A stretch of 64,000 nucleotides of DNA. Source: an uncultured Anaerolineaceae bacterium. GTDB lineage: Bacteria; Chloroflexota; Limnocylindria; Limnocylindrales; CSP1-4. Within the stretch, counting starts at the first letter, position 1. Each line of letters opens with the position of its first letter. The stretch is taken from positions 36,624-100,623 of the forward strand of contig CAZOHT010000010.1 in NCBI GenBank assembly GCA_964579825.1, given 5' to 3'. The position numbers were made by a program, and so were the translations under genes. The notes under the pieces are model-generated. The model saw only the letters and a list, made by a program, of their open reading frames with translations. It ran no database searches and was not told where the DNA came from. Positions 25,535 through 54,113 of this stretch are shown here, in pieces.

Positions 25535-25628
25535 GAGTCGCCCAGGACTCTCAGCCAATATGCCCCGATGTGCCTTGCAGGCACGCCGGGGCAGGACTGG
25601 GGTCGGATTGGGTTCGCGCTCTGGACCG

Positions 25629-26873: not shown

Positions 26874-26915
26874 CGCCGTGCGTTCCGCCCATCGACGCGG
26901 TCCGCGCCTCCCGAG

Positions 26916-27722: not shown

Positions 27723-27728
27723 CGGTCC

Positions 27729-29291: not shown

Positions 29292-29408
29292 ACTATCCGA
29301 CTATATCCGACCGGACGAACCGCACCCGGACCGGGCCGCCCGCGCACGCTACGATCGGGGCCTGATGACACCGCTTTCGCCGACGCAGGCCGAAGTCGAC
29401 CACCCTGG

Positions 29409-31195: not shown

Positions 31196-31233
31196 GTCGC
31201 TGAGCGCGGGGCGGGTCAGGTCACCCCGTCACG

Positions 31234-31776: not shown

Positions 31777-31828
31777 CGGTCGGCCAGCGCGTCAGGTGAG
31801 GGAGGCCGTCGAGCCCGGTCCGATCCGA

Positions 31829-33082: not shown

Positions 33083-33162
33083 GCGCCCATGATAGGTGGC
33101 CGAGCCGTTCGGGAGCCGCTTCCATGTCAGGCACTGGTGCGGCCCGGCCACACCAGAGACGA

Positions 33163-35612: not shown

Positions 35613-35712
35613 GGCAGCCTGGCGCTCAGGCGTACGCCAGCATGAAATGGTCGTCTCCGACTATACAGTCGGCCGATCGGATCGTTGACATGCTCCTTGA
35701 GGGGATCGATCT

Positions 35713-37086
35713 GTGACCGACGTCCGGACCGAGACCGAGGAACCGAACTCGGGTCAGGCCTTCTCCAACCGCGTCCTGATGTTGTTCGCCACCCAGGTCT
35801 TCACCGCGGGAATGGCCATCTTCAACGGCTTCCTCCTGGCCCGAGCCCTGGGTCCAAGCGCCAAGGGCGACTACTACCTGGTGACGCTGCTTCCTGCCAC
35901 CATCATGGTCTTCATCCAATTCGGTTTGCCGTCCGCCCTGAGCTTCTTCTCAGCACGGGGCCTCGTTGACCGGATCGTGTCCCGAACGCTGATCCTGACG
36001 GTCGCCCTCACGGGACCTGCCTTCGTGATCGTCATCGCGATCCTTCCGTTCCTCCAACAGACGATCGTCCAAGGACCCGACAGGTCGTTGATCCTGTTCT
36101 GTCTGCTGGCCCTGCCCTTGCTCCTGAACGCGACGTTCACGACCGCGGTGGTGATCGGGCGCCAAGCGGTGGGCTGGGCATCTGCTGTCTACGTCATCGT
36201 TGCCGCGAGTACGACAGCGCTGTTGGTCATCCTTGTCGTCATCTTGGATCTCGGACTGATGGGAGCCCTTGTGGCCTACCTACTCAACGCCGTGATCCTT
36301 GCAACCGGCTTCATCATCGGAGCCAAGCGGACGTCGGACCTTCCGCCTCGTACCGGCGTCGTCCGATACCGGGCGCTCTTCGGGTTCGGCCTGCGCCTGT
36401 ACCCCGGGAACCTCAGCCAGTTCCTGACGAATCGGGCCGACGTCTACCTCATCGCCTGGCTCATGGTGGCTCCATCCGCCCCGCTCGGCTACTACAGCAT
36501 GGGCGTCTCGATGGCAGAACTCGTCTTGTTCTTTCCGCGCGTCGTTTCGACCATCTTCTTCCCACACGTCTCACGCGCGACCAGGGAAGATGCCGATCGC
36601 CAAGTCCCTCGCGTCACACGGGTGACGTTGCTCCTGACGGCGTGCGTCGCGATCGCCATGGTTCCGACCGCGACGACCCTCATCCTGTGGCTGATCCCAG
36701 CGTTCACTCCCGCGCTCTCGGCCCTATATGTCCTCCTGCCCGGCGTCGCCGCCCTGAGCGTCTCCGAGGTGCTGAGTGGGTATGCGGCCGGCCTCGGACG
36801 AACCACCTTGACGTCCATGGTCAGCATCTCGGTGCTGATCGCGAACGTCGCCCTCAACATCGTGCTGATCCCGATCTACGGGATCGTCGGAGCGGCACTC
36901 GCGTCGCTGTTGACCTACACCTTCGCGGCCGTGACGTTCTCGGTGATCGCGTCTCGCCTAGCCGATACCCCGCTTCGGCGCTTCTGGATCCCACACATGG
37001 ACGACGTCCGATTCGTCGTGTCGACCTTGACGGCGCTGGGGCGACGGATAGCGGCTTCGCGGACCGGCGCCACCCGCACTGGGTGA
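35713..37086 (+). CDS. wzx: polysaccharide flippase, MOP superfamily (Wzx-like)
   Basis: 457 aa with about 12-14 TM segments and a typical Wzx N-terminus (NRVLMLFATQVFTAGMAIFNGFLLARALG). GTG start. GC content is visibly lower than in neighbouring genes. Confidence 0.8.
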   Translation: MTDVRTETEEPNSGQAFSNRVLMLFATQVFTAGMAIFNGFLLARALGPSAKGDYYLVTLLPATIMVFIQFGLPSALSFFSARGLVDRIVSRTLILTVALTGPAFVIVIAILPFLQQTIVQGPDRSLILFCLLALPLLLNATFTTAVVIGRQAVGWASAVYVIVAASTTALLVILVVILDLGLMGALVAYLLNAVILATGFIIGAKRTSDLPPRTGVVRYRALFGFGLRLYPGNLSQFLTNRADVYLIAWLMVAPSAPLGYYSMGVSMAELVLFFPRVVSTIFFPHVSRATREDADRQVPRVTRVTLLLTACVAIAMVPTATTLILWLIPAFTPALSALYVLLPGVAALSVSEVLSGYAAGLGRTTLTSMVSISVLIANVALNIVLIPIYGIVGAALASLLTYTFAAVTFSVIASRLADTPLRRFWIPHMDDVRFVVSTLTALGRRIAASRTGATRTG

Positions 37087-37120
37087 CGCCGGCGCCGCGT
37101 CTGGGATCGACCGGACAGCC

Positions 37121-38656
37121 CTACAGCCCCGAGTTTCCGCCCCCGTCGACCATGTTGCCGGTGTCGTACGGCAATCCCTCGGAGCCCGTGGCCTTGAGGT
37201 TCCGATACACCCCACTCGCCTGATGGAAGTTGACCGAGACGTCGCCCTGACCGCAGTTGGTGATCGTCCATCCATCGAGGATCAGATCCGTGGTCGGGAC
37301 ATCCTCGTAGAACGCGTAGGCCAGGTTGGACGCGACGATGTCGGTGATGTGGATGGACGTCTCCTTGACCGTGCTGGAGTCGATCTGGATCCCGGACCAC
37401 GTGCGACCGGATCCCGTGATGTTCCATCGACTCAAGGTCAGGTTCGTATTGCCGCGGCCGCCGGCCATCGAGATGTAGGCGCCGTAGGTCTTGTACGCCT
37501 TGTCGGACGTCGGACCACGGGTGATGTTCCGGATCTTGATGTCCGTGATCGTCACGTTCTTGCTGCTGCGGATCTCGAAGATGCCGGCCTGGTCCAGGAC
37601 GTAGCCGTCGAACGTGAAGCCCTGCATCGTGATATTGCTGGCCAGGCTGTTCAGACCGAAGTAGAACTGCCCCCATCGGGTGGAGTCGCCGTTCCCGGTG
37701 AAGGTGACCGTAGCCCCAGCTTCTGGCCTGATGACCAGTCGGCTGGACCGGGCGACGTCGATGTAGATGGCGGGCAGCTTGTAGGTCCCGGCCCTGAACT
37801 CGATGACATCGACGTTCTCGTCGGCGATCAGGGCCTTCAACTGCGACGCGGTGCCCGACGTCGTGAATGTCTTGACACCCGCAGATGGAGCGACGGTGGG
37901 GGCGGCGGTCGGGGCGGCGGTCGGTGCCGTCGTCGGAGCGCTCGTGGGGGCTGCGGTCGGGGCTGCGGTGGGCGCGCTCGTGGGGGCTGCGGTGGGGGCT
38001 GCGGTGGGCGCACTCGTCGTAGCGGCGGTCGGTGTCGCCGTCGGCGCGGGCACCTCAGCGGCCACTGGCTCGACCGCGACCTTGTTGTTCCCGCGGATGA
38101 TGAACTTGTCGACCGCCACCGTCGGGTGGCCGTTCGTCGCCAGGGAGACCATCTGGAAGGTGTGGGTGCCGTAGCCGCTGAACAGCTGCTGGAAGACCAC
38201 GGTCGAAGCCACATAGCGGCTGGCATACATGTCGACCGTGTTCACGTATGCGCCGTCGATGTAGATCTTGGCCTCACCACGCGTCGGCCCGACCGGGCCG
38301 ACCCAGGCGAACCCGGTGCCCTTGAACGTGACCGTGGCGCCCGCCCCGCGCTGGTCGGTGGAGCGCACTCGGCCACCGCTGTAGCTGCGGTAGGAAACGC
38401 GCGTCCAGTGCCCGTTCCAGTCCACGGACGCGCTGTTCTCCTGGTAGGTCGTGACCTTGTAGTTGGTCGACCAGGCGGCGACGGAGCCGCCTGAACCGGA
38501 ACCTGCGAACACACCGACGGTCGGGATGATCAATCCGACGAGGACAAGGCCCATGAGTCCGGTGGCCGCCCAATCGCGCGCACCGCGCTTGCGTGGGGCC
38601 AGGCTTGGGGTTGGCTTGGGGGTCTCGTCGACCCAGTTCGATCCATCCCAATACAT
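37121..38656 (-). CDS. membrane-anchored CBM-like beta-sandwich plus Pro/Thr repeat linker plus beta-helix protein; paralog C
   Basis: Same architecture as 24086-25534: an N-terminal tail with WVDETP, a TM segment, a CBM-like domain (WNGHW...GATVTFKGTGFAWVGPVGPTRGEAKIYIDG), an (APTAAPTAAPTS)n linker and a divergent beta-helix (ITMQGFTF, VTITDIKIRNIT). Confidence 0.7.
   Translation of the reverse strand: MYWDGSNWVDETPKPTPSLAPRKRGARDWAATGLMGLVLVGLIIPTVGVFAGSGSGGSVAAWSTNYKVTTYQENSASVDWNGHWTRVSYRSYSGGRVRSTDQRGAGATVTFKGTGFAWVGPVGPTRGEAKIYIDGAYVNTVDMYASRYVASTVVFQQLFSGYGTHTFQMVSLATNGHPTVAVDKFIIRGNNKVAVEPVAAEVPAPTATPTAATTSAPTAAPTAAPTSAPTAAPTAAPTSAPTTAPTAAPTAAPTVAPSAGVKTFTTSGTASQLKALIADENVDVIEFRAGTYKLPAIYIDVARSSRLVIRPEAGATVTFTGNGDSTRWGQFYFGLNSLASNITMQGFTFDGYVLDQAGIFEIRSSKNVTITDIKIRNITRGPTSDKAYKTYGAYISMAGGRGNTNLTLSRWNITGSGRTWSGIQIDSSTVKETSIHITDIVASNLAYAFYEDVPTTDLILDGWTITNCGQGDVSVNFHQASGVYRNLKATGSEGLPYDTGNMVDGGGNSGL
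37883..38050 (-). repeat. in-frame Pro/Thr/Ala tandem repeat (about 36-nt period) encoding the interdomain linker
   Basis: The protein reads PAPTATPTAATTSAPTAAPTAAPTSAPTAAPTAAPTSAPTTAPTAAPTAAPTVAPS. On the plus strand this appears as repeated gggctgcggtsgg units. Confidence 0.85.
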
Positions 38657-40338: not shown

Positions 40339-41067
40339 TCAGCCGGCGGAGACCGTCCTGACCTCGTTGCCGACGATCACGCACACCTCGTCGACGTCGT
40401 CCAGACGCGCCGTGATGAAGTCGTAGTCGCGCATCTGGTCCGTTCGACGCAGGTAGGCCACGCTGTTGCCGCCGGCGATGGCGCCGACCGGCTGGTGCTC
40501 CCAGCGCGCCGCGATCTCTGCCGACGCCGCGTCCGCCGCACGGAATCCGGACTGCATGAGCCGGGCCGCGAGCCACGCACAGCCGAGCTGATCCTCCTCC
40601 CGGAACTCTCCGCGGCTGCCGGCACCGATGATGGCGACGCGATCGTGGCGCGCAGCGACGTGGCGCGCTGTCGCCGACACGTTCCTCAGGCACGCGGCGT
40701 AGGCCGCTTCGGCCGGCGCCGACGCCAGCATCAGCTCCGTCCCCGAGGTCGACAGCATCACCAGCGGGCGCTCGACGTCCTGGCGCTCGGTCAGGTCCGC
40801 CGGGCTGTTGTTCATGTCGAACCCGTACGGCATGTGACCACCCAGCTCGCCGGCGAGGATCGAGTCCGGATGGGCGTCACGCAGTCGCACGGCGTCGTCG
40901 AGATCGGCCGCGATCAGGCAGCGACGCCCGGACACCGCGGCCGTCACGGCCAGGGTCGTCGCCCGGATCACATCGATCGCCACGATGGCGTGGTCGTCCC
41001 GGTAGCGAGTCGCCGATGCCGGGAAGCAGTCGATGACGAAGATCCGATCCCGTGCCGAGGCCGCCAC
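40339..41067 (-). CDS. comB: 2-phosphosulfolactate phosphatase (ComB family)
   Basis: VAIDVIRATT...AGELGG...GFDMNNSP...ST(S)GT are ComB-family motifs. GTG at 41067 lies 11 nt after the comA stop. Confidence 0.75.
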   Translation of the reverse strand: MAASARDRIFVIDCFPASATRYRDDHAIVAIDVIRATTLAVTAAVSGRRCLIAADLDDAVRLRDAHPDSILAGELGGHMPYGFDMNNSPADLTERQDVERPLVMLSTSGTELMLASAPAEAAYAACLRNVSATARHVAARHDRVAIIGAGSRGEFREEDQLGCAWLAARLMQSGFRAADAASAEIAARWEHQPVGAIAGGNSVAYLRRTDQMRDYDFITARLDDVDEVCVIVGNEVRTVSAG

Positions 41068-41078
41068 GTCGTTCGGCC

Positions 41079-41915
41079 TCAACCCGGCCGGCGGGGCCGG
41101 AGGTTGTCGTGCGCGAAGGCGTCGGAGTGGAGACCACGTCGATAGATCTCCACGCGGAGGATCTCCTCGAGCCGGATATTGCACAGGTGCACGTCCGGCC
41201 CGAAGTGGTTCAACAGGGCGAACTGGCTGGCCTTGTTGGGGGCCTCGAAGAGCGCGGTGTCGAGTCCGAAGGCCTCCGCGAAACGATCGGCCGTCGCCGG
41301 AACGAAGTCGCCACGCTCATCAAAGCAGCCGATGCCGACCGCGCTCTCCCGGGCTTCGATGATGACCTGGCGGGCACCGGCGTCGAGCCACTGGCGCCCC
41401 TGGGCGATCAGGCCCGACACGACGTCCGAGCTGAAGGCACCGTCGTGCTTCTTCCCGAGCTCGAACTGCACCTGCAGGCCCCGGTCCCGCGCCAGGCGCA
41501 TCACGTCGGCGGGTGCGAGCGGCATGTCGGTGAACCCCTCACCGGCCTCGATGCCGGTGAACCCGATGTCGGCGACGAGGTCGAGGTAGAACGGGAGCTC
41601 GCCTTGCTGGACCGCGATCTCGAACGGTCCGCCGCCGGTGACCGTCGGCACGCCGAACGCCCGGCACGCGGCGACCTTCCAGCGGGTGACCCGCTCGTCG
41701 CCGATCTGCCAACCGGCCATGGAGATCTTCATGGTCTCCATCAGGTGACGGCTCTGCACCAGGTGACCGTGGAACGTGTACGGGTCGTAGCCGGGATCGA
41801 ACGGGCACGTCGCCGGGCGCAGGTCCGGCACGCCGATACGCTCGAGATAGTCCCGGGTGTGGACGGTCCCGACCGGGACATCCATGGGAGGCAGTGCGTC
41901 GATCCGGTCATCCAT
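41079..41915 (-). CDS. comA: phosphosulfolactate synthase (ComA family)
   Basis: 278 aa. MKISMAGWQI, PTVTGGGPFE, GFTGIEAGEGF and IIEARES resemble (2R)-phospho-3-sulfolactate synthase. The start shares 1 nt with the upstream stop. Confidence 0.75.
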   Translation of the reverse strand: MDDRIDALPPMDVPVGTVHTRDYLERIGVPDLRPATCPFDPGYDPYTFHGHLVQSRHLMETMKISMAGWQIGDERVTRWKVAACRAFGVPTVTGGGPFEIAVQQGELPFYLDLVADIGFTGIEAGEGFTDMPLAPADVMRLARDRGLQVQFELGKKHDGAFSSDVVSGLIAQGRQWLDAGARQVIIEARESAVGIGCFDERGDFVPATADRFAEAFGLDTALFEAPNKASQFALLNHFGPDVHLCNIRLEEILRVEIYRRGLHSDAFAHDNLRPRRPG

Positions 41916-43117
41916 CAGGCGATCCCTCCGCTGGACTTTCGCTGCACGAAGCCACGCATGGCGACCCGGAACGGCGCGAGGTCGTCGCGGGCGAAGTAGG
42001 CGGTCTCACGGACACCGAGGAGCGACGTGGCCCAGTCGCGGATCGTCAGCTTGCCATCCCGCCGGTACTGCAGCGCCGAGTCGACGTCCGCACCCTCCAC
42101 CATCCACCGTCGTCCCTCCATCGGCTCGGCCTCCGGCACGGGCTGGCCGGTCAGGTCCAGGTACATGGCGCGCGCGACGTCGAGGCCACCCTTCGAGACG
42201 AACAGGCGGAAGGTCGCACCGATCCTGGGGTTGGCATCGAGGACCTTGTACTGACCGTCACGGGCATCGAACCGGTATCCGATGTCCAGGATCCCTCGAT
42301 AGCCGATCGCCTTCATCCACTTGACCGTCGTGTCGCGGACCGCGTCGTTCGCCTGGCACACCCCTAGGCTCGTCACGCCGGTGTAGACCGGCGACTGCCG
42401 CAGCTTCCGACCTGTGAAGCCCATGCGCGCATCCGACGCCTCGTCGAAGTAGCCGTTGAACATCCAGACATCGTGTTCTCCGCCCGGGATGAACTCCTGC
42501 AGCATCAGATTCGGCTCGTCGGGATCCTCCATGGCCACGTAGCGTCGGACGAGTTCGTCCGGGTCGTCGACGATGACCATCTTGAGTCCGGTCCGAAGCT
42601 TGAGCCGGTTGCCGTCGATCCCCTTCAACATGACCGGAAACTCGGCGGTGGCCGCGAATCGGGTCACGTCGTCAACGTCCTTGGGGAAGACGACATCGGG
42701 CGTCGGTACGCCATGCTCACGCGCCAGGAAGTGCATCGAACGCTTGTCGGCCAGGGCCGCGGCCAGTCCGGCTGGCTGTCTCGGAAAGAGGTACCACTCC
42801 CCCAACACATCGGCGTACGCCGACACCAGGAGGGAGGTCTGGTCCCACGTCGGGATCAGGATGGTCCCTCCACCGAGCTGGCGACCCAGGTCGAGGAGGT
42901 AGTCGACGGTGGCCTCAGGTGCGGCCGCAGCCAGGTCGAACACGTGACGTCGCGCGAGGTAGCGCGAGCGCGCAGCCGCACGGGGCGGGTTCGCATCGAC
43001 GGCGTGGACGGGGATCCCAAGCCGTCCCAGGCTGCGGATGATCCCGAGGCAGCCGTAGTTCTGCGCGCTGAGCACCAGCACGGGCGTGGTGGTATCGAGA
43101 GGCGGATATGGAGGCAT
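41915..43117 (-). CDS. ATP-grasp carboxylate-amine/thiol ligase (COG3919-like)
   Basis: VLVLSAQNYGCLGIIRSLG N-terminus, FPVMLKG, LMLQEFIPGG and KVLDANPRIG are ATP-grasp P-loop and Mg-site-like segments. ATG at 43117. Confidence 0.75.
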   Translation of the reverse strand: MPPYPPLDTTTPVLVLSAQNYGCLGIIRSLGRLGIPVHAVDANPPRAAARSRYLARRHVFDLAAAAPEATVDYLLDLGRQLGGGTILIPTWDQTSLLVSAYADVLGEWYLFPRQPAGLAAALADKRSMHFLAREHGVPTPDVVFPKDVDDVTRFAATAEFPVMLKGIDGNRLKLRTGLKMVIVDDPDELVRRYVAMEDPDEPNLMLQEFIPGGEHDVWMFNGYFDEASDARMGFTGRKLRQSPVYTGVTSLGVCQANDAVRDTTVKWMKAIGYRGILDIGYRFDARDGQYKVLDANPRIGATFRLFVSKGGLDVARAMYLDLTGQPVPEAEPMEGRRWMVEGADVDSALQYRRDGKLTIRDWATSLLGVRETAYFARDDLAPFRVAMRGFVQRKSSGGIA

Positions 43118-43181
43118 CGCTAGTACGGTAACGGTTGGTTCGCTGTGTGGTGATGGACCACGGTGTCTGCACGCAACGACA

Positions 43182-44522
43182 TCACTCGAAGACCTGGAGC
43201 GGAGCGCACGGGTAGACGACCACCGACAGGTCGTCGCGCCCGTCCTGTTGCCTCCGAACGAGGTCGACGACCTCGGCCCAGTTGGGCACGATCTGCATGC
43301 CCGGGAGGCCATCCGGGAGGGGGCGTTCCAGGTGGACGGTCTGGTACATGAGGATCGGCAGTGCGGGCCCCGACGCAACGGCACGACGTCGGCGAGGCCG
43401 GAGGCGCCTGAGACCGGACGCCCCAAGGCCCACCAGTCCGACCTGACCCTGCGCCCACGCGACCTCGATCCGGCGACGGACCCGTGCGATCCCGGTGAGC
43501 GGTGCGAGCGGATACAGGCCGTGGTGACCGATCCCCTCTGGACACGCGGCGATGAGGATCCGCGACGCGGATCGACTGGCGTGCTGGAGGGGGATGATCC
43601 CCTTGCTACGCATGAACGTGGCTGAGATGTCCATGGGATACGCATTCGCGATCACGACATCTGCGTTCGCCGGCATCGCGGCCGCGTACGCCGACCTCGA
43701 GTAGGCGGATGCCTCCGCGTAGGCGACAGCCGGATCACCAGCCACGATCCGGACGATCCGGCGCTGGCCGTCGACGTGCGCCATGACCATCCAGCGCAGA
43801 CCGACCAAACGGGCGATCTCATCCAGGTCGGCGCGAAAGTCGTTGGCTACGTCGTACCGACCGCCGGCGCCGGCACGGCCGAAATGCAGCCGAGCGATCG
43901 ACCGCCGGCCGAGGATCCCAAGGGCGAGCTTGCTTCCACCGCCGAAGCCGGCCGTGTGCTGGGGATACACGCCGCCGATGCCGATGACCAGGTCGGCAGC
44001 CGCGGCCGCGCGGTTGACGACCACGGGCGTCCCCATCCGGCTGACCCCGATCTTCACGCAATCGCCCTGGTCGTCATGCGAGATGACTCGACAGCCGACG
44101 TCAGCGCCCACCTTGCGCGTGAGTCGCTCCCGGGACAACGGGCCGTGGGTGCCTGTCGCGACGAGGACGGTCACCTGGGATCGTGCGACGCCCGCTGCGT
44201 CCAACTCAGCGAGCAGGGCCCCGAGGATCGTCTCGACCGGTGTCGGACGGGTCAGATCGTCGACCACGATGACGACGGTTCGCGCTCCGTGGGCGATGGC
44301 GGCGAGCGGCTCGGCACCGACGGGGGCACGCACGGCGGCGACGATCTCGTCGAGCTCGAGCGGGCGCGGGAGCTCCGGGGCATGGACGGTCACCTGCCAG
44401 CCCGCCGGAAACGGAAGGTCGACCATGTCATCGCCGTACCAGGCGGCCGTCCTGATCGCGACCGACGACCCCGGGCGCGCCGGACCGACCGGCGTCAGGA
44501 GCGCGGTGTCCTTCAGGTTCAT
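43182..44522 (-). CDS. LarA-like (lactate racemase N-terminal domain/DUF2088) nickel-pincer-dependent 2-hydroxyacid racemase/epimerase homolog
   Basis: VVIVVDDLTRPTP, VLVATGTHG and VYPQHTAGFGGGSKLALG match LarA-family segments carrying the catalytic His and cofactor-tethering Lys, as I recall them. ATGA overlap with the upstream ATP-grasp. Confidence 0.7.
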   Translation of the reverse strand: MNLKDTALLTPVGPARPGSSVAIRTAAWYGDDMVDLPFPAGWQVTVHAPELPRPLELDEIVAAVRAPVGAEPLAAIAHGARTVVIVVDDLTRPTPVETILGALLAELDAAGVARSQVTVLVATGTHGPLSRERLTRKVGADVGCRVISHDDQGDCVKIGVSRMGTPVVVNRAAAAADLVIGIGGVYPQHTAGFGGGSKLALGILGRRSIARLHFGRAGAGGRYDVANDFRADLDEIARLVGLRWMVMAHVDGQRRIVRIVAGDPAVAYAEASAYSRSAYAAAMPANADVVIANAYPMDISATFMRSKGIIPLQHASRSASRILIAACPEGIGHHGLYPLAPLTGIARVRRRIEVAWAQGQVGLVGLGASGLRRLRPRRRRAVASGPALPILMYQTVHLERPLPDGLPGMQIVPNWAEVVDLVRRQQDGRDDLSVVVYPCAPLQVFE

Positions 44523-45628
44523 GCCTTCTGGACGCCGAGGAGCGCTCGCAGGACAGTCTCTGCCACGGCGCATGATCCACCATTCGCTGGCCGGCAATGG
44601 TGGTGCAGGCCGGGCGTGGTGTTGACCTCGAGAAAGACCCCGCCCGATCCCGCAAGGGATCGTGTCGGATCATTCGTCAGCACGTCGACGCCGGCGAAGC
44701 GCGTCCCGATCGCGGTCACGAGCGGCGCGACCTCATCGATCAGATCCCGTCCGACGAGCGCGGTGACGTCCTCGTCGTAGATCGTGCGCTGTTCGTGGCT
44801 CGAGACGGTGTCCGGGCGGACCCACCTGGCCACGATCGAGTCACCGGCTGGCACGATGTCCTCAGTCGACAGCCCCTGACCAGCGAGGGTCTGCTCGATG
44901 CGCCGATCCACCGACACGCCCTTGGCGGTCAGTAGCTCGATGATCGAGGAGGTCCCGTCCCCGACGATCCGGATCCCGGAGCGCCGGACGGCATGGATCA
45001 TCTGCCCATCGAGGAACAGCAATCGGACCGATTCCGCGGGGACCATCCGCTCCACGACGACCCGGTTCGCGAACAGGGAGGCGAGGGCCAGCGCGTCTGC
45101 GAGCGCGTAGCGCGAGCGGACATCGATGGAGACCCCGATGCCCGATCCCGTGCCCTCGGCCGGCTTGACGACCAGCGGGGCTTCGTCGACGGATAGGGTG
45201 CGCCAGATCCGACCCAGGTCCGCCCGATCGAACGTTCGCGGCCCAGGGATCGGGATCCCGAGGCGGCTGGCCACGTCGTAGCAGAACGACTTGTCCCCGG
45301 CCAGACCCAGCACGACCGGGTCATCGAACTGGACCAGGTAGGTCATGACGCGAGTCTTCCGGCCCCCGAGCGTGATCTCGCAGACCTCCTGCGACAGCGG
45401 ACCGCACGTGGCACCGATCGCGGTGGCGGCACCCTGCCACATGGCCATGTACTCCTCGCGTCGGTCCTGCACGTAGATCGTCCGGCTGCGACCGGTCGCG
45501 ATGGCGAGGCTGCGGCGGACGCGCGCTGACCAGCGCAGACCCCTGAAGATCATGCCCGACGCGATCGAATGTGGGGCCTTGACTCGGATCCGACGAACGC
45601 GATGGTCTGGGGACATGGGCTCGAGCAT
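44519..45628 (-). CDS. ATP-grasp ligase (cyanophycin-synthetase/RimK-like stand-alone domain)
   Basis: LVVKPAEGTGSGIGV and GVFLEVNTTPGLHHH are ATP-grasp signatures. The start is taken at ATG 45628 (or 45616), downstream of the stop at 45652. GAGGG lies 5 nt upstream. Confidence 0.7.
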   Translation of the reverse strand: MLEPMSPDHRVRRIRVKAPHSIASGMIFRGLRWSARVRRSLAIATGRSRTIYVQDRREEYMAMWQGAATAIGATCGPLSQEVCEITLGGRKTRVMTYLVQFDDPVVLGLAGDKSFCYDVASRLGIPIPGPRTFDRADLGRIWRTLSVDEAPLVVKPAEGTGSGIGVSIDVRSRYALADALALASLFANRVVVERMVPAESVRLLFLDGQMIHAVRRSGIRIVGDGTSSIIELLTAKGVSVDRRIEQTLAGQGLSTEDIVPAGDSIVARWVRPDTVSSHEQRTIYDEDVTALVGRDLIDEVAPLVTAIGTRFAGVDVLTNDPTRSLAGSGGVFLEVNTTPGLHHHCRPANGGSCAVAETVLRALLGVQKA

Positions 45629-45651
45629 ACCGACCCTCGCCCCCAGGCGTG

Positions 45652-46632
45652 CTACGGGGCGTACGTGACGCTGACCGCCAGGTAGTCGAGCGAGAAGTCG
45701 CGGTTGGCGTTCGTGGACGCATCGATGATCCGGACTCGGAAGTTGGTCGTGCTCAACTCGGAGAGCGTCCAGGATCGGCCCCAGGTGTCGTTCGTGGCGC
45801 CGAACACGTAGCTGACCTCGTTGGCGACCGTGATCGCCTGCGTCTTGATCGTCGTCCACGTGGCGCCGCCGTCCCACGACAGCTGGGCACACAACGTGTT
45901 CGTGCTGCTCGCGACCGAGTCGAGCTTGAGGTCCGCCTGGACGCGGATGCCGTCGACGTCCGCGATCGTTCCCGGCAGACCGAAGGCGAAGCCCCAGAAG
46001 CGGTGGCGATCCTTGGTCGTTCCCGGGACCGCGCCCGTGCCGCAGGCTGCCAACGTGCCGGTGCCCGTATTCGTGTCCACGGCGAACCGGTTGTCGCTGA
46101 CGCAGGCACGGGTCGGATTCGTCTGGTAGCCGTTGTTGTCGCCGGCGCCGGTCGTATCCGCTGCCTGGTTGACGCACGGCGCGAAGGTCGTCGACGTGGC
46201 CGTGACCACGGCCGTCGCCTGGTTGCTGACCGCGCTGGTCCAGCTGGCGTAGGTCGTGCGCACCACGTAATACCAGGTGCCCGCACCAGGGCTGTCGGTG
46301 GCGGTCGTGGCCGAACCGGGGGTGACGGTCGAGACGAGCGTGTAGCCGCTGCCGCTGGTCGCGGATCGATAGATGCCGTAGCCGGTGGCATAGGCATCCG
46401 CACTCGGCGTCCAGGTCAAGGTCACGGTCGCACCGCCCGTCGCGGCGACGCCGGTCGGCGGCGCGAGGGTGTCGGCGGCGAATGAGGCGGTGGACGTCGC
46501 GGTGTCCGTGAAGCGCGCAAGGGTCCTGGTCGCCGGGATCCCGACGACCAGGAGGAGCGCGACAGCGATCAGGAACGGGCCGCGACGGCGCACGCGTTCA
46601 GGCCCCCAGCCGAGGGGGCCGCGACGGCGCAC
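45652..46632 (-). CDS. secreted protein with SipW-type signal peptide, FN3-like domain and unknown C-terminal domain
   Basis: The N-terminus ...FLIAVALLLVVGIPATRTLARFTDTATSTASFAADTL has the A-x-F-(T/N)-D...F..(G/D)T(L/V) pattern of TasA/camelysin-type signals. An FN3-like segment follows (TVTLTWTPSADAYATGYGIYRS). The 39-bp duplication creates an equivalent alternative start at GTG 46593. Confidence 0.7.
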   Translation of the reverse strand: MRRRGPLGWGPERVRRRGPFLIAVALLLVVGIPATRTLARFTDTATSTASFAADTLAPPTGVAATGGATVTLTWTPSADAYATGYGIYRSATSGSGYTLVSTVTPGSATTATDSPGAGTWYYVVRTTYASWTSAVSNQATAVVTATSTTFAPCVNQAADTTGAGDNNGYQTNPTRACVSDNRFAVDTNTGTGTLAACGTGAVPGTTKDRHRFWGFAFGLPGTIADVDGIRVQADLKLDSVASSTNTLCAQLSWDGGATWTTIKTQAITVANEVSYVFGATNDTWGRSWTLSELSTTNFRVRIIDASTNANRDFSLDYLAVSVTYAP

Positions 46633-46662
46633 GCGTTCAGGCCCCCAGCCGAGGGGGCCGCG
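46577..46662. repeat. perfect 39-bp tandem duplication (about 2.2 copies) across the sipW stop / downstream start junction
   Basis: Positions 46577-46623 are identical to 46616-46662 (offset 39, hand-checked base by base). The unit contains the last sipW codons, TGA, a 4-nt spacer and GTG CGC CGT CGC. Confidence 0.9.
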
Positions 46663-47338
46663 GATCCTCGGTCGCCCAGCGACGCTGGCGCATCCGCCGT
46701 TCGCGCGAGGCGCGCACGACCTCCCGGGCCGTGGCGCGTTCGTAGACGTACGCGATCGTCGGCGCGGGCGGCACGTCCGGCGGTCGGTCGGCCGGCACGG
46801 GCGTCGCGACGAGCGAGGCCCGCGGCTCCAGCAGGACGCCGAGCAGCAACAACACGAGGCCGAACGAGATGACGAACAGGATGCCGCTCGGCGCGGAGTA
46901 CAGGGTCAGGAGGTAGCCGGCGAACGGGATGCCGACGGCCACCCGACCGATGACGGCCACGGCCGGCGTCAGCGATGGATCCGGGGTCGCGTTGGCGTCA
47001 CCCTGCGTCTCGAGCCAGAGCCCGCCGTCGCGTTCGGCGAGCCGGATGATCCGGTGCGTGAAGACGGCGCGGTCGGGCCCGCTGCGCAGGCTGACCACGT
47101 CACCGACGGCCAGGTCCGCCGGGGCGACCTGGTCGAGGACCACAGCCGCGCCGATGGGGATCGACGGCTCCATGGACGGCCCCGCGACCACGAGGGTCGG
47201 GTGGCCGGTCAGGGGCAGGACGCGACCAAGCACGAGGACCCCCAGCGACACCACGACGAGCGCCAGCAGGAGCCCATCGAGGAGTCGCCGGAGGACGGTG
47301 ACCGAGCGGTCGCGGACCGCGCGGTTCGCGCTCGTCAT
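46637..47338 (-). CDS. sipW: signal peptidase I, SipW (archaeal/ER) type
   Basis: VVAGPSMEPSIPIGA (catalytic Ser box), FTHRII (His box) and TQGDANATPD (GDxN box). An N-terminal TM segment and a C-terminal TM segment are present. Confidence 0.85.
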   Translation of the reverse strand: MTSANRAVRDRSVTVLRRLLDGLLLALVVVSLGVLVLGRVLPLTGHPTLVVAGPSMEPSIPIGAAVVLDQVAPADLAVGDVVSLRSGPDRAVFTHRIIRLAERDGGLWLETQGDANATPDPSLTPAVAVIGRVAVGIPFAGYLLTLYSAPSGILFVISFGLVLLLLGVLLEPRASLVATPVPADRPPDVPPAPTIAYVYERATAREVVRASRERRMRQRRWATEDPRPPRLGA

Positions 47339-47350
47339 CGTGATCCCGGG

Positions 47351-47941
47351 TTACGGGTTGTTGGCGGTCTGCTCGGCAGCGAAGGTGAACGTCACCGCGG
47401 AGGTGATCCCCTGCAGGGCGTCCCCGGTGGCCAGCGGCAGATCGACCCGGAAGCACAGGACCTCGTTGGCCAGTCCGGCCAGCGTGCGGTCGCCCGCCTG
47501 GGCACCCTGGGTCGCACTGCCGATGGCCGCACCGTTCAACGCGGTCGTGGCGACCACGATCGTGCCGTCGAACGTCGCGCAGCTCGTGCCGAGCGTTCGG
47601 ACCGTCAGGGTCAGGGCGGTCCCGAGGGTGTTGGTCGCCGTCGTGCTCATGGCATACCGGAACGTCGCCGTTCCCGCGTTCGCGATCGTCATCGCCTGGG
47701 TGTTCGTGTCGCCGGGCATCATGCCGGTCACCGTGAACGCGACGGTCGGGCTGGACGTGATGTCGACGGTGCCAGCGGCGAACGTCCCCGTGGACGCGGC
47801 GGTATCGGTGAAGATGGCCAGCGACATGGCCCCCGCTCCGGCGCTGAGCACGGAGAGGCCGAGGATCGCGGCGAGGATCCGCCGTCGATGGGCCCCGGGC
47901 CGGGCAGGCTGAACCAGATGCGCGCGCTCGGTTTCGGACAA
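47351..47941 (-). CDS. TasA/camelysin-family (peptidase M73-like) secreted fibre protein
   Basis: The signal ...LSAGAGAMSLAIFTDTAASTGTFAAGTVDI parallels B. subtilis TasA (GGTWAAFNDIKSKDATFASGTLDL). The mature part is beta-rich and Thr/Ala-rich. TTG start follows GAAGGAGA. Confidence 0.75.
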   Translation of the reverse strand: MSETERAHLVQPARPGAHRRRILAAILGLSVLSAGAGAMSLAIFTDTAASTGTFAAGTVDITSSPTVAFTVTGMMPGDTNTQAMTIANAGTATFRYAMSTTATNTLGTALTLTVRTLGTSCATFDGTIVVATTALNGAAIGSATQGAQAGDRTLAGLANEVLCFRVDLPLATGDALQGITSAVTFTFAAEQTANNP

Positions 47942-48211: not shown

Positions 48212-49063
48212 TCACGCGGTCGGCGTTTCTCCGAGCCCGCTCTCGGCGAGGCGCTCGTCGTAGCGTCGGTCGCGCCAGGCGAGGGCCGCCTTCAGCCCGT
48301 CGCGCTTGACGATGGTGTCCCATTCGCGCTGCTCGGGCGTGTCGGCGGCATTGATGATCGCGCCGAGGTCCAGCCCGGCCTGGACGGCCAGCCGGAACCC
48401 GGCCGCGTCCATCGCCCGGTTGAGCATCGCCTTCGTCGGGCCCATGACCTCGGGCGGCGTCCGTGCCAGGCGATCGGCCAGGGCGTCCACCTCGGCGTCG
48501 AGCCGATCGGCCGGCACGACCCGGTTGATGAGGCCGATCCGCTCGGCTTCGACGGCGTCGATGAGGTCCCCCGTCAGCAGCAGCTCGCGGGTCTTCTTCT
48601 GGCCGATGAGATAGGGCATCAGCAGGGTCACCGGCGCGGAGCCGTAGCGGATCTCCGGCTCGCCGAGCTTCGTGCCCTCGGCCGCGACCACCAGGTCGCA
48701 CGCCATGGCCAGTTCGAGCCCCCCGGCGAGGGCGTAGCCGTGGATCTGGGCGATGACCGGCTTCGGCGAATCGAGGATGCGGAGCGTCGCCGCGACATCC
48801 ACGGCCAGCGCCGAGCGCCAGCCGACCGGGCCGCCCATCCCCCCGTCGACCTCCTCGGCGAGGTCGTAGCCCGCCGAGAAGGCCCGGCCCGCACCGGCGA
48901 TGACGATGACCCGGACCTCCGGATCGGCATCGGCCGCCTCCACCGCGGCGACGAGCTGCTCGACGAGCTCCCCGGACAGGGCGTTGAGCTTGGCCGGCCG
49001 GTTCAGCGTGAGCCGGACGCCCCACGGGGTCGACGCCGACAGGACCAGCGCGTCGTCAATCAT
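48212..49063 (-). CDS. enoyl-CoA hydratase/isomerase (crotonase family)
   Basis: LNRPAKLNAL, AGAGRAFSAGYDL and IHGYALAGGLELAMACD (oxyanion-hole motifs). ATG at 49063. Confidence 0.85.
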   Translation of the reverse strand: MIDDALVLSASTPWGVRLTLNRPAKLNALSGELVEQLVAAVEAADADPEVRVIVIAGAGRAFSAGYDLAEEVDGGMGGPVGWRSALAVDVAATLRILDSPKPVIAQIHGYALAGGLELAMACDLVVAAEGTKLGEPEIRYGSAPVTLLMPYLIGQKKTRELLLTGDLIDAVEAERIGLINRVVPADRLDAEVDALADRLARTPPEVMGPTKAMLNRAMDAAGFRLAVQAGLDLGAIINAADTPEQREWDTIVKRDGLKAALAWRDRRYDERLAESGLGETPTA

Positions 49064-51269
49064 CGAACGCCTCCAGGACGACCAGGGCATCGACCGCGAC
49101 GGCACCGGCGGCCGTCGCGATGACCGGGTTGAGGTCCACCTCCACGATGTCGGAGCGCTCGCTGGCCAGGCGCGACAGCCCGACGATGAGGTCCGCGACC
49201 GCCGCACGGTCGACGGCGGCGCCGCCGCGGATCCCCTCCAGGAGCCGACGCCCACGGAGCTCGTCCAGCATCGTCAGCGCCGTCGCGTGACCGACCGGCG
49301 CGAGCCGGATCGCGACGTCGTCGAGGACCTCGGTGAAGATGCCGCCGAGCCCGACGACGACGGCCAGCCCGAACTGGGCATCCCGGCGCAGCCCGACGAT
49401 GAGCTCGACGCCGTCGGCGGCCATCGGTTCGACGAGGAGGCCACGCACGCCAAGGTCGTGCTGGCGCGCGATCTCGAACAGGCGCGCCGCCGCCGCGCGG
49501 ATGGACTCGGCATCGGCGAGCCCCAGGCTGACGAGCCCGAGATCGCTCTTGTGAGCCAGGTCCTCGGCGTCGACCTTGAGGGCGATCGGTCCGGCCAGTG
49601 CCCGAGCGGCCTCGACAGCCGCTTCGGCATCGGCGACCGGGATCGCCCGCGTCACCGATAGACCGGCCCCAGCCAGGAACGCCAGGCTCTCGCGCTCGGA
49701 CAGCGTCCGCGTGACCACGCTGGTCGCGGTGGCGTGCCCCTGGGCCGCCTCGTCCTGTCCGAACGACGTCCGATCGGCCGCGAGTGCGGGCCACTCCGCG
49801 CGCCAGGGTCGACCATCCGGCGCGCCGCGAGCCTCGCGTCGACCCTGCCAGCGCGCGACCGACGCGATGGCGCTGAAGGCCTCGACCGCACCGCGCAGCA
49901 ATGGGGCGCCGTCGCCGTGCTCGTCGAGCAGGGCCTTGATCTCTGGCGGATGCTCGCCCGAGGTGAGCGAGACGTAGACCGGCAGGATCGCGGGCCGGTC
50001 GCGGGTCGCCGCCAGCAACGGCCGCGTCACGTCGAGGGCCGTCTCCACCTCCGCCGGCATGGACCGGTAGGGGAAGTCGTGCACGAGCACCAGCACGTCA
50101 TAGGCGCCCGAGGCGGCCATCGCCTCGAAGCAGGCGCCGTACGCCGCCGTCGGCTCGTCGGCGCCCCAGGGATCGAGCGGGTTGCCGATGTAGCCCATGG
50201 TCGGGAGGCGCTCGAGGATGGCCGCCCGGGCCGGCTCGGGGATCGGCGGCAGGTCCAGCCCGGTCGTCGGCACCAGATCGGCGACGAGCGAGGCCTCGCC
50301 GGTCGACACGGTCACGACCCCCGTCCGGCCGCGACCGACACCGCGGCCACTGCGGCGGACTCCCTCCACGAGCTCGGCGGTCTCGAGCAGCTCATCCAGG
50401 TCGCGGCAGCGGATCACGCCCGCCGCGTCGAGCGCGGCGTCGGTGACGCGAGTCTCGCCCGCGAGCGAGCCCGAGTGCGCGACCGCGGCGGCCTGGGCCT
50501 GGTCGCTCCGGCCGACCTTGACAACCATGATCGGCTTGCCGAGCTGGAGCGCCCGGTCGGCCAGCGCCAGGAACCGCTCCGGACGCTTGAACCCCTCGAC
50601 GAACAGGATGACCGAGTGCGTCTCGGGGTCGTCCAGGCAGTACGCGAGGTAGTCGCAGACGTCGAGGACCACTTCCGAGCCGCAGCTGATGATCCGGCTG
50701 AACCCGACCCTCGATCCGGCCTGGATGAACGCGTCCGTGACCGATCCGGACTGGGCGATCCCGGCCACGCCACCCAGCGGCTGGTACGGCGACACGTCGC
50801 CGATGTACGAGGCGCTGTTGGCGGTGAGGTCCACGACGCCCATGCAGTTGGGACCGACCAGGGCGATCCCGTGCCGACGGGCGATCTCGGCGACCTCGTC
50901 CTGCATCGCGGCGGCCGCGGCACCCCCCTCCACGACACCGCCGCCCGGGATGATGACCGCGGGCACCCCGGCGGCGGCCGCATCGCGGGTGACCATCGCG
51001 GCCCGGAGCGGGTTGAGCGCGACGACCGCGACGTCCGGCCGTTCGGGCAGGTCGGCGAGGCTGGAGTAGCAGGGCTGGCCGAGCAGCTCGGTGTAGTTCG
51101 GGTTCACGAAGTGGCAGCGGGTCGCGCTGCCCATCACGCGGAGGTTGTCGCGCACGGTCTCCGCGATCCCCGTCCGCGGCGACGCCCCCACGACCGCCAC
51201 GGACCTGGGCGCGAAGAGCGGCCGCAGGTCGATGGCGCCCGTGGTCGTGCTCGCGTCGGGGGCCGTCAT
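49056..51269 (-). CDS. acyl-CoA synthetase (NDP-forming), fused CoA-binding/ligase plus ATP-grasp domains
   Basis: SVAVVGAS, GPNCMG and the phosphohistidine region AVAHSGSLAG, with a C-terminal ATP-grasp (IALKV...LVEPM). ATGA overlap with the upstream ACAD. Confidence 0.85.
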   Translation of the reverse strand: MTAPDASTTTGAIDLRPLFAPRSVAVVGASPRTGIAETVRDNLRVMGSATRCHFVNPNYTELLGQPCYSSLADLPERPDVAVVALNPLRAAMVTRDAAAAGVPAVIIPGGGVVEGGAAAAAMQDEVAEIARRHGIALVGPNCMGVVDLTANSASYIGDVSPYQPLGGVAGIAQSGSVTDAFIQAGSRVGFSRIISCGSEVVLDVCDYLAYCLDDPETHSVILFVEGFKRPERFLALADRALQLGKPIMVVKVGRSDQAQAAAVAHSGSLAGETRVTDAALDAAGVIRCRDLDELLETAELVEGVRRSGRGVGRGRTGVVTVSTGEASLVADLVPTTGLDLPPIPEPARAAILERLPTMGYIGNPLDPWGADEPTAAYGACFEAMAASGAYDVLVLVHDFPYRSMPAEVETALDVTRPLLAATRDRPAILPVYVSLTSGEHPPEIKALLDEHGDGAPLLRGAVEAFSAIASVARWQGRREARGAPDGRPWRAEWPALAADRTSFGQDEAAQGHATATSVVTRTLSERESLAFLAGAGLSVTRAIPVADAEAAVEAARALAGPIALKVDAEDLAHKSDLGLVSLGLADAESIRAAAARLFEIARQHDLGVRGLLVEPMAADGVELIVGLRRDAQFGLAVVVGLGGIFTEVLDDVAIRLAPVGHATALTMLDELRGRRLLEGIRGGAAVDRAAVADLIVGLSRLASERSDIVEVDLNPVIATAAGAVAVDALVVLEAFDD

Positions 51270-52441
51270 CCCACGACGCGGCTGACGCCGCGCTTCTCGA
51301 GGGCGCGTGCCACCACGAGTCGCTGGATCTCGGACGTGCCCTCCCAGATGCGATCCACGCGCAGTTCGCGGAAGAACCGCTCGGCCGGGAACTCGCGCAT
51401 GTAGCCCCGACCACCGAACACCTGGACGACCCGGTCCGCGCAGCGGAAGGCCGCCTCGGACGCGAACAGCTTGGCGAGGGACGCCTTGGCGTGGATGACC
51501 TTCGGGTCCGCGCCGGTGTCGACGAGCCACGCGCACTCGCGGGTCAGCAGGCGGGCCGCCGAGGCATCGGCCGCGGAGTCCGCCAGCGGGAACGACACGC
51601 CCTGGAAGTCGTAGATCCGTTCGCCGAACTGGATCCGTTCCGTGGCCCACTCGACGGCCAGCGTCAGCAGGCGTTCCATCGCCCCGCTGCAACGCGCGCC
51701 GATGTGGATGCGCTCCTCGACGAACCACTCGTTGGTCATCTCGTCGGCGGCACCGATCTCGCCCAGGATGGCCGACGCCGGGACTCGCACGTCGTCCAGC
51801 ACGAACTGCGGGTGTCGGTCGGCGAACGTGTGCATGTAGTCCGGGTCGTGCTTGATCCGGACGCCGGGCGTGTCGTAATCCACGAGGAACAGGGTCGGCA
51901 GGCGGCGTTCGCCATCGATGACGTTCGCGTGGAAGATCATGAAGTCGGTGTCGTCCGGGCCGGTCACGAACCACTTCTCGCCGTTCAGCCGGTAGTCGCC
52001 GGTCGCCGCGTCACGGACCGCGGTCGCCTGGAGGGTCCGGGGATCGGACCCCGCGCCGTCCTCGGTGATCGCGTAGCTGCCGGATCGCTCACCCCGGTTG
52101 CACGGGTCCAGGTAGCGGACGCGCTGCTCCGGATCGCAGTGGATCAGGACGTTGTAGGCGCCCGGGATGTAGGACCAGAGGCCGCCGGTGACCTGCCCGA
52201 GTTGCTCGTGGACCAGGACCTGCTCCATGGCCGTCCAGCCCTGGCCGCCGAACTCGACCGGCAGCGAGCCCCCGTTCAGGCGAGCTTCGATGGCCGCCGT
52301 GCGAGCCGCGTTGCCGAAGTCGCGCGGGACGCGCCCGCCGAGACGCTCGAATTCGGCCTCGAGCGGCTGCAGGACGTCGGTGACGTAGGCGCGGGCGCGG
52401 GCCTGGAGCTCGAGCTGGGCCGGCGTGAGGGTCAGGTCCAT
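51266..52441 (-). CDS. acyl-CoA dehydrogenase
   Basis: YAITEDGAGSD, KWFVTG and the C-terminal RIWEGTSEIQ are canonical ACAD motifs. Confidence 0.85.
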   Translation of the reverse strand: MDLTLTPAQLELQARARAYVTDVLQPLEAEFERLGGRVPRDFGNAARTAAIEARLNGGSLPVEFGGQGWTAMEQVLVHEQLGQVTGGLWSYIPGAYNVLIHCDPEQRVRYLDPCNRGERSGSYAITEDGAGSDPRTLQATAVRDAATGDYRLNGEKWFVTGPDDTDFMIFHANVIDGERRLPTLFLVDYDTPGVRIKHDPDYMHTFADRHPQFVLDDVRVPASAILGEIGAADEMTNEWFVEERIHIGARCSGAMERLLTLAVEWATERIQFGERIYDFQGVSFPLADSAADASAARLLTRECAWLVDTGADPKVIHAKASLAKLFASEAAFRCADRVVQVFGGRGYMREFPAERFFRELRVDRIWEGTSEIQRLVVARALEKRGVSRVVG

Positions 52442-52546
52442 GGCGCCAAGGATGCGGCACCCGGTGGGACGCCTCGTCCGTCGTCGCGGGCGGCGGGACG
52501 GGCGGGAACGGGACGGACCGCCGGAGCCGCCACGCGACTCGCCCGA

Positions 52547-53992: not shown

Positions 53993-54113
53993 GTGGTCTG
54001 TTCTCCTGCTCGTGCGGTACGGTGCATCATACGACCGCCCTCCCGGGACCTCGTCGCCTCGACGTTCGCGGCGACCTCCCAGCCGCTCACGCCAGAATCG
54101 AAAGGATCCCGCC

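Follow-up and report, generated by a model that had tools for sequence, protein, structure and literature searches.

The TasA-type matrix-fibre operons of Bacillus -- tapA-sipW-tasA in B. subtilis and sipW-tasA-calY in B. cereus -- are three-gene units, with a dedicated ER/archaeal-type signal peptidase and two secreted proteins whose N-terminal signals are unusual and alike. The enzyme families ComA and ComB are known from the archaeal coenzyme M (CoM) pathway and, as YitD and YitC, from the synthesis of sulfolactate in Bacillus; their established chemistry leads from phosphoenolpyruvate (PEP) and sulfite to (R)-3-sulfolactate. Members of the LarA superfamily are racemases or epimerases of 2-hydroxy acids that invert C2 by passing a hydride to a nickel-pincer cofactor, and acyl-phosphate ligation chemistry is expected from the ATP-grasp family, which includes the cyanophycin synthetase G-domain, the D-Ala-D-Ala and D-Ala-D-lactate ligases and RimK/LysX. 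Relatives of all of these have been found side by side in a 64-kb stretch of DNA of about 70% G+C (contig CAZOHT010000010.1, positions 36,624 to 100,623; hereafter the window) from an uncultured member of the Chloroflexota. They form a run of eight minus-strand genes, in which a putative TasA/SipW-type fibre module of three genes (the trio) is followed by five enzyme genes (the cassette).

The trio resembles the Bacillus fibre operons in its three-gene make-up, in a major subunit that matches camelysin/TasA, and in having exopolysaccharide genes alongside, in what is probably a matrix region. It differs from them in order (tasA-like, sipW and accessory gene, as against tapA, sipW, tasA), in an accessory protein that consists of an Fn3 domain plus a beta-sandwich and has no similarity to TapA, in a shorter subunit that matches B. 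subtilis TasA only in the N-terminal strand and a C-terminal motif, and in its host, a Chloroflexota lineage in which the fibre is a predicted one. The window's ComA and ComB belong to the same two families as the archaeal and Bacillus proteins and have the same predicted product, (R)-sulfolactate, but they come without the downstream CoM enzymes and are coupled instead to a racemase and ligases. The LarA-like protein keeps the Lar_N domain, both catalytic histidines, the tethering lysine and the nickel-binding histidine of LarA, Mar2 and LarA_Ip; unlike the curated LarA-homologue (LarAH) groups, its subfamily has its own C-terminal region, its own residues after the second histidine, and an F-M-R-S-K motif. 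The two ATP-grasp proteins share the fold and nucleotide-binding region of the ligases listed above, but are stand-alone enzymes.

The explanation that we consider probable, if well short of certain, is that the run is made up of two evolutionarily independent units, and that the second of them makes, inverts and ligates sulfolactate into a surface-glycan side chain. The genes concerned, in order of transcription, with the boundary between the units and the convergent gene against which the run ends, are as follows (lengths in amino acids, aa; scores against profile cut-offs where given).

47351..47941, minus strand: candidate TasA/camelysin-like secreted fibre subunit, 196 aa, TTG start; PF12389 (Peptidase_M73)
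46637..47338, minus strand: SipW-type (archaeal/ER-type) signal peptidase I; TIGR02228, 83 bits against 51.85
45652..46632, minus strand: putative second SipW-type substrate (the third gene), Fn3 plus C-terminal beta-sandwich, with an N-terminus like that of the TasA-like protein
45629..45651, minus strand: boundary between fibre trio and cassette, a 23-nt spacer with no hairpin
44519..45628, minus strand: ATP-grasp ligase 1, 369 aa, like the cyanophycin synthetase G-domain; 4-nt overlap with the LarA-like gene
43182..44522, minus strand: LarA-like predicted nickel-pincer-nucleotide 2-hydroxyacid racemase, 446 aa; Lar_N, 146.5 bits
41915..43117, minus strand: ATP-grasp ligase 2, 400 aa; CPSase_L_D2 (PF02786), 27 bits against 19.8; 1-nt overlap with ComA
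41079..41915, minus strand: ComA-family phosphosulfolactate synthase, 278 aa; PF02679, 140.5 bits
40339..41067, minus strand: ComB-family 2-phosphosulfolactate phosphatase, 242 aa; PF04029, 123.5 bits
39047..40324, plus strand: lhgO, L-2-hydroxyglutarate oxidase; NF008726, 524 bits; convergent and outside both modules

The eight-gene run is real, and all eight genes are coding. A sequence-only reading of this DNA had described eight co-directional genes of these families, and all eight open reading frames (ORFs), from 47941 down to 40339 on the minus strand, were located where it had placed them. Their G+C content at third codon positions (GC3) is 0.84-0.92, matching real genes in a genome of this composition, the Pfam and NCBIfam assignments agree, and separate gene calls on identical metagenome contigs gave the same five enzymes with lengths of 369, 446, 400, 278 and 242 aa. 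The intergenic gaps in transcription order are 12, 4, 23, -4, 64, -1 and 11 nt, as had also been described, with the gap preceding the third gene lengthening to 43 nt if the gene caller's 313-aa start is taken instead of the 326-aa start. The same reading had seen no hairpin terminator inside the block and had it end against the convergent lhgO, both of which hold: no credible internal terminator was found within the block, the sole minus-strand terminator-like match falling inside ATP-grasp 1 (3 terminator-like sites observed against 1.5 expected); RNA folding at three junctions was no better than that of shuffled sequences (z = +0.5, +0.7 and -0.3); and an Rfam scan of 39000-49500 gave only one sub-threshold small-RNA match. 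A sigma-70 promoter scan found no promoter, such a scan being uninformative for a high-GC lineage of this kind. The 23-nt spacer between the third gene and ATP-grasp 1 contains a Shine-Dalgarno-like GGGGGCGAGGG, and from its length and lack of a hairpin the trio and the cassette are predicted to be possibly co-transcribed in this organism. Tight, terminator-free packing of eight genes is nevertheless no proof of a functional system.

The relationship between the two units was followed from each side. For the enzymes, an alignment of the LarA-like subfamily was scanned against one genome per GTDB species, yielding 80 loci that were then searched with all eight window proteins. The subfamily itself, defined by a LarA-like protein at least 39% identical to that of the window, comprises 39 of them, and these carry ComA in 25 cases, ComB in 26, ATP-grasp 2 in 24 and ATP-grasp 1 in 15. 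Where at least 5 kb was available on both flanks (22 subfamily loci) the corresponding numbers are 19, 19, 18 and 9, while SipW, the TasA-like gene and the third gene occur in none of the 22; ATP-grasp 2 is the cassette's most constant ligase partner. None of the cassette partners was found in the remaining 41 loci, which hold more distant LarA homologues. The cassette genes are linked to one another, and the two units are independent. The five-gene cassette recurs in at least six phyla, with its gene order rearranged between phyla, yet with the genes remaining together; the metagenome-assembled genomes (MAGs) that hold the loci are labelled Actinomycetota, Chloroflexota, Nitrospirota, Zixibacteria, Desulfobacterota and Chromatiales.

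Among the 80 LarA loci, trio homologues are present in only one relative, MAG MFD04651.bin.2.158, and a phmmer search of six-frame ORFs likewise placed them nowhere but in loci L001 and L006, both of that MAG. L001 shares the junction and is colinear with the window at 87-90% nucleotide identity. In this MAG the genes for ATP-grasp 1, the LarA-like protein and the third protein are split by frameshifts, and ATP-grasp 2 and ComA are called as a single 679-aa fusion; the frameshifts are probably long-read indel errors and not signs of pseudogenes.

From the fibre side, a SipW alignment scanned against metagenomes gave 80 loci, 17 of them with enough downstream sequence to hold a cassette. A tasA-like gene lies immediately upstream of sipW, on the same strand, in all 74 loci that reach far enough, and the third gene, where detected, lies downstream of sipW (43 of 43). 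Eight loci with more than 1.2 kb past sipW (L087, L109, L110, L114, L115, L129, L142 and L145) have no homologue of the third gene, so the accessory protein is not universal in the family. Cassette genes were found in none of the 80 SipW loci, the 17 informative ones included, nor in any of three long trio-bearing contigs (L166, L167 and L168). Convergent lhgO comes straight after the trio in L092 and L093, at a distance of some 35-40 nt in each, and the 256-kb contig L166 has the trio, lhgO, and then a polysaccharide locus with Bac_transf, GT4, methyltransferase and GINT1_N genes; the lhgO that follows the trio in these three is 79-81% identical. These three loci thus have the window's layout minus the five cassette genes. 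In L089, L101, L109, L167 and L168 the trio leads into polysaccharide-type genes, and the downstream side of the trio is variable among the SipW loci generally.

How recently the difference arose may be gauged from the flanking housekeeping proteins, which are 88-95% identical to those of the window in the cassette-free loci L089, L166 and L167, and 94-95% identical in L001, the sole locus with the cassette. Since the flanks of the cassette-free relatives are hardly less identical than those of L001, the cassette has been gained or lost within a genus-level clade, and the best reading of the eight-gene run is that two units have recently come to lie side by side, in this lineage only, where a variable polysaccharide locus begins or ends. 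The sequence-only reading had put forward a fibre module coupled to an enzyme module as one system, with conservation of the adjacency in other genomes as a check. On that check the idea fails: the adjacency is missing from all 22 enzyme-anchored loci and from all 17 plus three fibre-anchored ones, and it is confined to the window and the one closely related MAG. Of the three possibilities that it had listed, the one with the most evolutionary support is that two separate operons simply adjoin. The internal promoter that it had suggested for the 64-nt gap at 43118-43181 would split the LarA-like gene from ATP-grasp 2, for which no support was found; the boundary lies instead at 45629-45651. 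That gap was also considered as an operon boundary and rejected, both of its flanking genes being part of the same conserved cassette and the gap having no significant structure. Likewise, lhgO was rejected as a member of the cassette, as it adjoins the trio in relatives that have no cassette.

The first unit (47941-45652), a putative trio for fibre formation and secretion, is conserved within a soil-dwelling clade of Chloroflexota whose relatives are labelled Limnocylindrales-type. Its TasA-like protein scores 47.8 bits against PF12389 (cut-off 22.5), over the N-terminal part only, at profile positions 10-81 of 196. It is not an orthologue of B. subtilis TasA, because the NCBIfam TasA equivalog gives 18 bits against a cut-off of 450. 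A profile built from 20 family members does match the B. subtilis TasA structures 8aur (E 4.4e-4) and 5of1, with its FTD-x-A-STG-x-F-x-x-GT-x-D segment aligned to residues 2-54 of 8aur; the protein appears to combine a SipW-dependent signal with similarity to the N-terminal (donor) strand of mature TasA. The N-terminal extension encoded from the TTG start is kept in relatives, and this conservation supports the long start; the GC3 of the gene is 0.90. A single-sequence AlphaFold model is all-beta, with a mean predicted local distance difference test (pLDDT) score of 47.7, and is too poor for use. Invariant throughout the family are a C-terminal AEQTANNP tail and the two cysteines C121 and C163. 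At 39-87% identity the TasA-like protein diverges faster than the housekeeping genes beside it, and SipW reaches no more than 66-69% identity against about 90% for the flanks, as expected of surface-exposed proteins.

The signal peptidase has Ser55 (in GPSM), His95 (in FTHR), Asp114 and Asp120 invariant across 26 homologues. It is of the same type as Bacillus SipW and not its orthologue, since it scores 57.7 against the 190 required by the Bacillus SipW equivalog. The third protein (326 aa) belongs to no Pfam or NCBIfam family. Its N-terminus, described as signal/donor-strand-like, is 47% identical over 47 aa to that of the TasA-like protein, with the motif LA-x-FTDTA-x-ST, and because of this common signal it is reasonable to regard it as a second SipW substrate, as the sequence-only reading had done. 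An alignment-based AlphaFold model (pLDDT 80.6) has an Fn3 domain that matches 3mpc (template-modelling score 0.79) and a C-terminal beta-sandwich with a weak match of the CBM22 type; no claim of carbohydrate binding is made from the weak matches of this kind. In the scheme proposed for this unit the SipW-type peptidase would cleave the unusual signal of the TasA-like subunit, the third protein would probably have an accessory or anchoring role, and the trio would face a hypervariable region that usually holds surface-glycan genes. Such trios are widespread and fixed in position in a Chloroflexota clade.

In the second unit (45628-40339), ComA aligns over its full length with Methanocaldococcus jannaschii ComA (1qwg, residues 15-249, E 6e-29), with GKK and E-x-RES kept, and ComB matches PDB entry 1vr0 (E 4.5e-15). 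The LarA-like protein aligns with Mar2 (6d6z, E 5e-41), and H126, H189, K198 and H213, which correspond to the two catalytic histidines, the tethering lysine and the nickel-ligand histidine, are invariant or nearly so among 35 members of the subfamily. It falls below every curated LarAH equivalog cut-off, the best being the LarAH6 malate racemase at 204 against 500 bits, and for that reason the subfamily is classed, on these profile scores, as an uncharacterised LarAH group. Its C-terminal region, from about residue 340, is specific to the subfamily. Published structures (10.1101/2024.11.28.625916) indicate that the C-alpha substituent of the substrate is contacted by the two residues that come after the second catalytic histidine, and that these residues and two C-terminal helices form its pocket. 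Those two residues are Ser/Thr-Thr/Ala in the LarA-like subfamily, and the YQxxK helix motif reads F-M-R-S-K, with the arginine nearly invariant; the predicted pocket is compatible with the binding of an anionic sulfonate, which we take as a lead only. ATP-grasp 1 matches the NCBIfam cyanophycin synthetase over region 187-473 (E 1.2e-35), PF07478 (Dala_Dala_lig_C) at 32.7 bits against a cut-off of 24, and PDB entry 7lgm (E 9e-22). ATP-grasp 2 is PRK12767-like, with marginal similarity to solved structures (E 1.4e-3).

The chemistry proposed for the cassette follows from these families. ComA would add sulfite to PEP to give (2R)-phospho-3-sulfolactate, and ComB would remove the phosphate to leave (R)-3-sulfolactate. 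The LarA-like enzyme would then invert C2, with a nickel-pincer nucleotide as cofactor, supplied by genes elsewhere in the genome; sulfolactate is its obvious substrate candidate because the subfamily is linked exclusively to ComA and ComB and because, in seven related loci, larB, larC or larE adjoins the LarA-like gene. Finally the two ATP-grasp ligases, by acyl-phosphate chemistry, would couple sulfolactate into a larger molecule, either through its carboxylate as an amide or through its 2-hydroxyl as an ester, as in the D-Ala-D-lactate ligases. The target is most likely the Wzx/Wzy polysaccharide encoded nearby, in which sulfolactate would belong to a side chain on a repeat unit that contains an amino sugar, our preferred guess for the acceptor being the amino sugar itself; like the racemase activity and the ligase substrates, this target is something we infer. 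By its position at the edge of the polysaccharide locus, between the trio and lhgO, the cassette produces the eight-gene run, and possibly read-through transcription. The suggestion, made from sequence alone, that a sulfonated hydroxy-acid decorates the fibre or matrix survives in part: decoration fits, and its likely target is the polysaccharide and not the fibre.

The glycan target is suggested by the company that the cassette keeps. The neighbours of the cassette were clustered and annotated with Pfam, and those that recur are Wzx, Wzy, glycosyltransferases (GT4, GT2 and GT9), DegT aminotransferases and priming sugar transferases, along with FemAB-like acyltransferases, polysaccharide deacetylases and acyltransferase-3 proteins. 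Counting Wzx, Wzy, GT4, GT2, GT9, DegT, Bac_transf, FemAB-like, polysaccharide deacetylase and acyltransferase-3 genes, two or more are present in at least 13 of 24 cassette loci and one or more in about 17; in Nitrospirota and Zixibacteria they are interleaved with the cassette genes. The window has a locus of this kind just beyond lhgO.

19579..38656, genes on both strands: Wzx/Wzy-type polysaccharide locus

It includes Wzy_C, a sugar epimerase, GINT1_N, two GT4, Bac_transf, VanZ, two DegT and Wzx, and also encodes a secreted protein with a PT-rich linker. It is to this locus that the cassette should most probably be assigned. In L002, from a related MAG, the same GT4/DegT/VanZ/Bac_transf set directly abuts ATP-grasp 1 and the LarA-like gene. 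The G+C content of the cassette (68.3%) is nearer to that of the polysaccharide locus (67.7%) than to that of the trio (71.0%) or of lhgO (71.7%).

Several points weigh against this account. No recognisable glycan gene lies within 10 kb of the cassette in eight mainly actinobacterial loci (L008-L011, L013, L014, L022 and L023). In none of the 64 kb of the window was larB, larC or larE found. ComA and ComB fall below their NCBIfam equivalog cut-offs (147.8 against 280 for ComA), so that an altered substrate is possible for both, and the substrates of the two ATP-grasp ligases are pure conjecture, the second being only weakly like solved structures. No sulfolactate-bearing glycan was found in the open-access literature, where 'sulfolactyl' gave no matches. 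Lastly, since the 23-nt junction has no hairpin, the two units may be co-expressed here, and a lineage-specific functional link between them may exist.

A more far-reaching form of the same idea is that the cassette is a horizontally mobile module for putting sulfolactate on surface glycans, with a phosphonolactate sister, that it includes the first nickel-pincer sulfolactate racemase, and that it has here been fused into a TasA-type fibre transcription unit as one matrix programme; taken as a whole this is tentative, with the balance of probability against it. Phosphonolactate is isosteric with sulfolactate, and one locus bears on the supposed sister. In L003 (7014-18169) the LarA-like gene, 54% identical to that of the window, has divergent larE-larC-larB on one side, and on the other a 2-hydroxyacid dehydrogenase, a PEP mutase and an ATP-grasp 2-like gene instead of ComA and ComB; Wzy, GT4 and polysaccharide-lyase genes surround it. 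PEP mutase followed by a 2-hydroxyacid dehydrogenase is a known route to phosphonolactate (PMC8942020). By analogy this single locus may be a phosphonolactate version of the cassette, and the swap fits a racemase/ligase core that handles C3 hydroxy acids with an anionic substituent. The PEP mutase, dehydrogenase and ATP-grasp gene beside the LarA-like gene recall the phosphonolactate branch (Ppm plus a VlpB-like dehydrogenase) of valinophos-type clusters, which shares with the cassette the logic of a C3 2-hydroxy acid with an anionic C3 substituent and then ATP-grasp ligation; the window differs in using sulfite addition by ComA and not P-C bond formation.

Another explanation accepts that the units are independent but has the cassette make a sulfonated metabolite, soluble or linked to a lipid -- candidates are an osmolyte, an antimetabolite and the head group of a sulfonolipid -- so that its placement among glycan genes is incidental. 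We regard this as rather doubtful. It would accommodate the eight cassette loci that have no glycan genes nearby, and in particular L008-L011, from Actinomycetota MAGs, in which a cassette without ATP-grasp 1 is accompanied by two sulfotransferases (PF13469 and PF00685; for example L010, 9758-16605) next to the housekeeping genes dnaX, recR, ask (aspartokinase) and asd, with a class I aldolase also close by and a GGDEF/EAL protein downstream. The resemblance of L003, with its PEP mutase, to phosphonate natural-product clusters, whose ATP-grasp ligases assemble small peptides, points the same way, as does that of ATP-grasp 1 to TIGR03103 (E 7.6e-25), the ligase that makes the osmolyte N-acetylglutaminylglutamine amide. 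Incidental placement is, however, hard to square with the Nitrospirota, Zixibacteria and Desulfobacterota loci, where the cassette is interleaved with Wzx, Wzy, GT4, FemAB-like, acyltransferase-3 and deacetylase genes, or with L002, where it abuts the priming sugar transferase, and no exporter or regulator typical of small-molecule clusters was seen.

That the eight genes form a true operon, under selection as a whole, and one functional system, in which the cassette puts sulfolactate on the TasA-like fibre or the third protein, or makes a small molecule that fibre assembly requires, is very improbable, and a dedicated fibre-decorating system is unlikely. The 23-nt junction with its Shine-Dalgarno-like sequence and no terminator, the colinear arrangement in one related MAG, and the fact that both products would reach the extracellular matrix are what it has in its favour. 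The adjacency is, however, absent from all 22 enzyme-anchored and all 20 informative fibre-anchored loci, genus-level relatives hold the trio and lhgO without the cassette, and the cassette occurs in other phyla with no trio homologue nearby. Moreover, ATP-grasp ligases act in the cytoplasm, whereas a TasA-type protein passes through Sec in the unfolded state and undergoes its processing outside. Finally, the view that ComA and ComB serve CoM biosynthesis or general sulfolactate metabolism, with the LarA-like and ATP-grasp genes as unrelated neighbours, is rejected as most improbable: by family annotation they stand at the first two steps of the archaeal CoM pathway, but the downstream enzymes are missing (no ComC, ComDE or bacterial XcbB-E among the annotated genes at about 13.7-49.3 kb of the window or the recurrent neighbours of the cassette loci), and across phyla ComA and ComB are found specifically together with ATP-grasp 2 and LarA-like genes of this subfamily, and in none of the 41 loci of other LarA homologues.

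No description of the cassette was found in the open-access literature, and two surveys of the LarA superfamily, with such of their supplements as were available, make no mention of it or of a ComA/ComB context; it seems to unite known enzyme families in a way not yet described, and is present in several phyla. Its recurrence suggests a bacterial role for ComA and ComB outside CoM, and offers sulfolactate as a candidate substrate for an uncharacterised group of LarA homologues, in a superfamily whose substrates are still being actively sought. Sulfolactate ligation to surface glycans, as preferred here, predicts sulfonate-bearing surface polymers in some soil and aquatic Nitrospirota, Zixibacteria, Desulfobacterota, Actinomycetota and Chloroflexota. 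If this is true, the polymers would be made without sulfation dependent on 3'-phosphoadenosine-5'-phosphosulfate (PAPS), with a bearing on surface charge, matrix properties and organosulfur cycling.

On its upstream side the trio has a fixed neighbour.

48212..54403, minus strand: acyl-CoA metabolism block (Pfam), upstream of the trio

This block, made up of an enoyl-CoA hydratase, an ADP-forming acyl-CoA synthetase, an acyl-CoA dehydrogenase and an aldehyde dehydrogenase, is syntenic with the trio in at least 12 metagenome loci as well as in L166 and L167. Within it, a mechanically called 972-aa ORF (49056-51974, minus strand) overextends the ADP-forming acyl-CoA synthetase, which is 737 aa on an identical contig; it is an ORF artefact typical of high-GC DNA. 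On the other side of the trio, L107 has an AbiEii-type toxin gene (8092-9198), which fits a post-trio region that is variable and prone to insertion.

The window's polysaccharide locus contains three paralogous genes, at 37121-38656 (minus strand), 24086-25534 (plus) and 19579-20619 (plus), that all match one and the same gene of L089, where it directly follows the trio. The copy at 37121-38656 has a long Pro/Thr/Ala-rich linker, for which Pfam gave a PT repeat only, and its C-terminal part is suspected from the sequence to be a beta-helix; the three may be secreted glycan-processing or surface proteins. A gene pair for HpaB (4-hydroxyphenylacetate 3-hydroxylase) and a flavin reductase lies at 16389-18489, on the far edge of this region.

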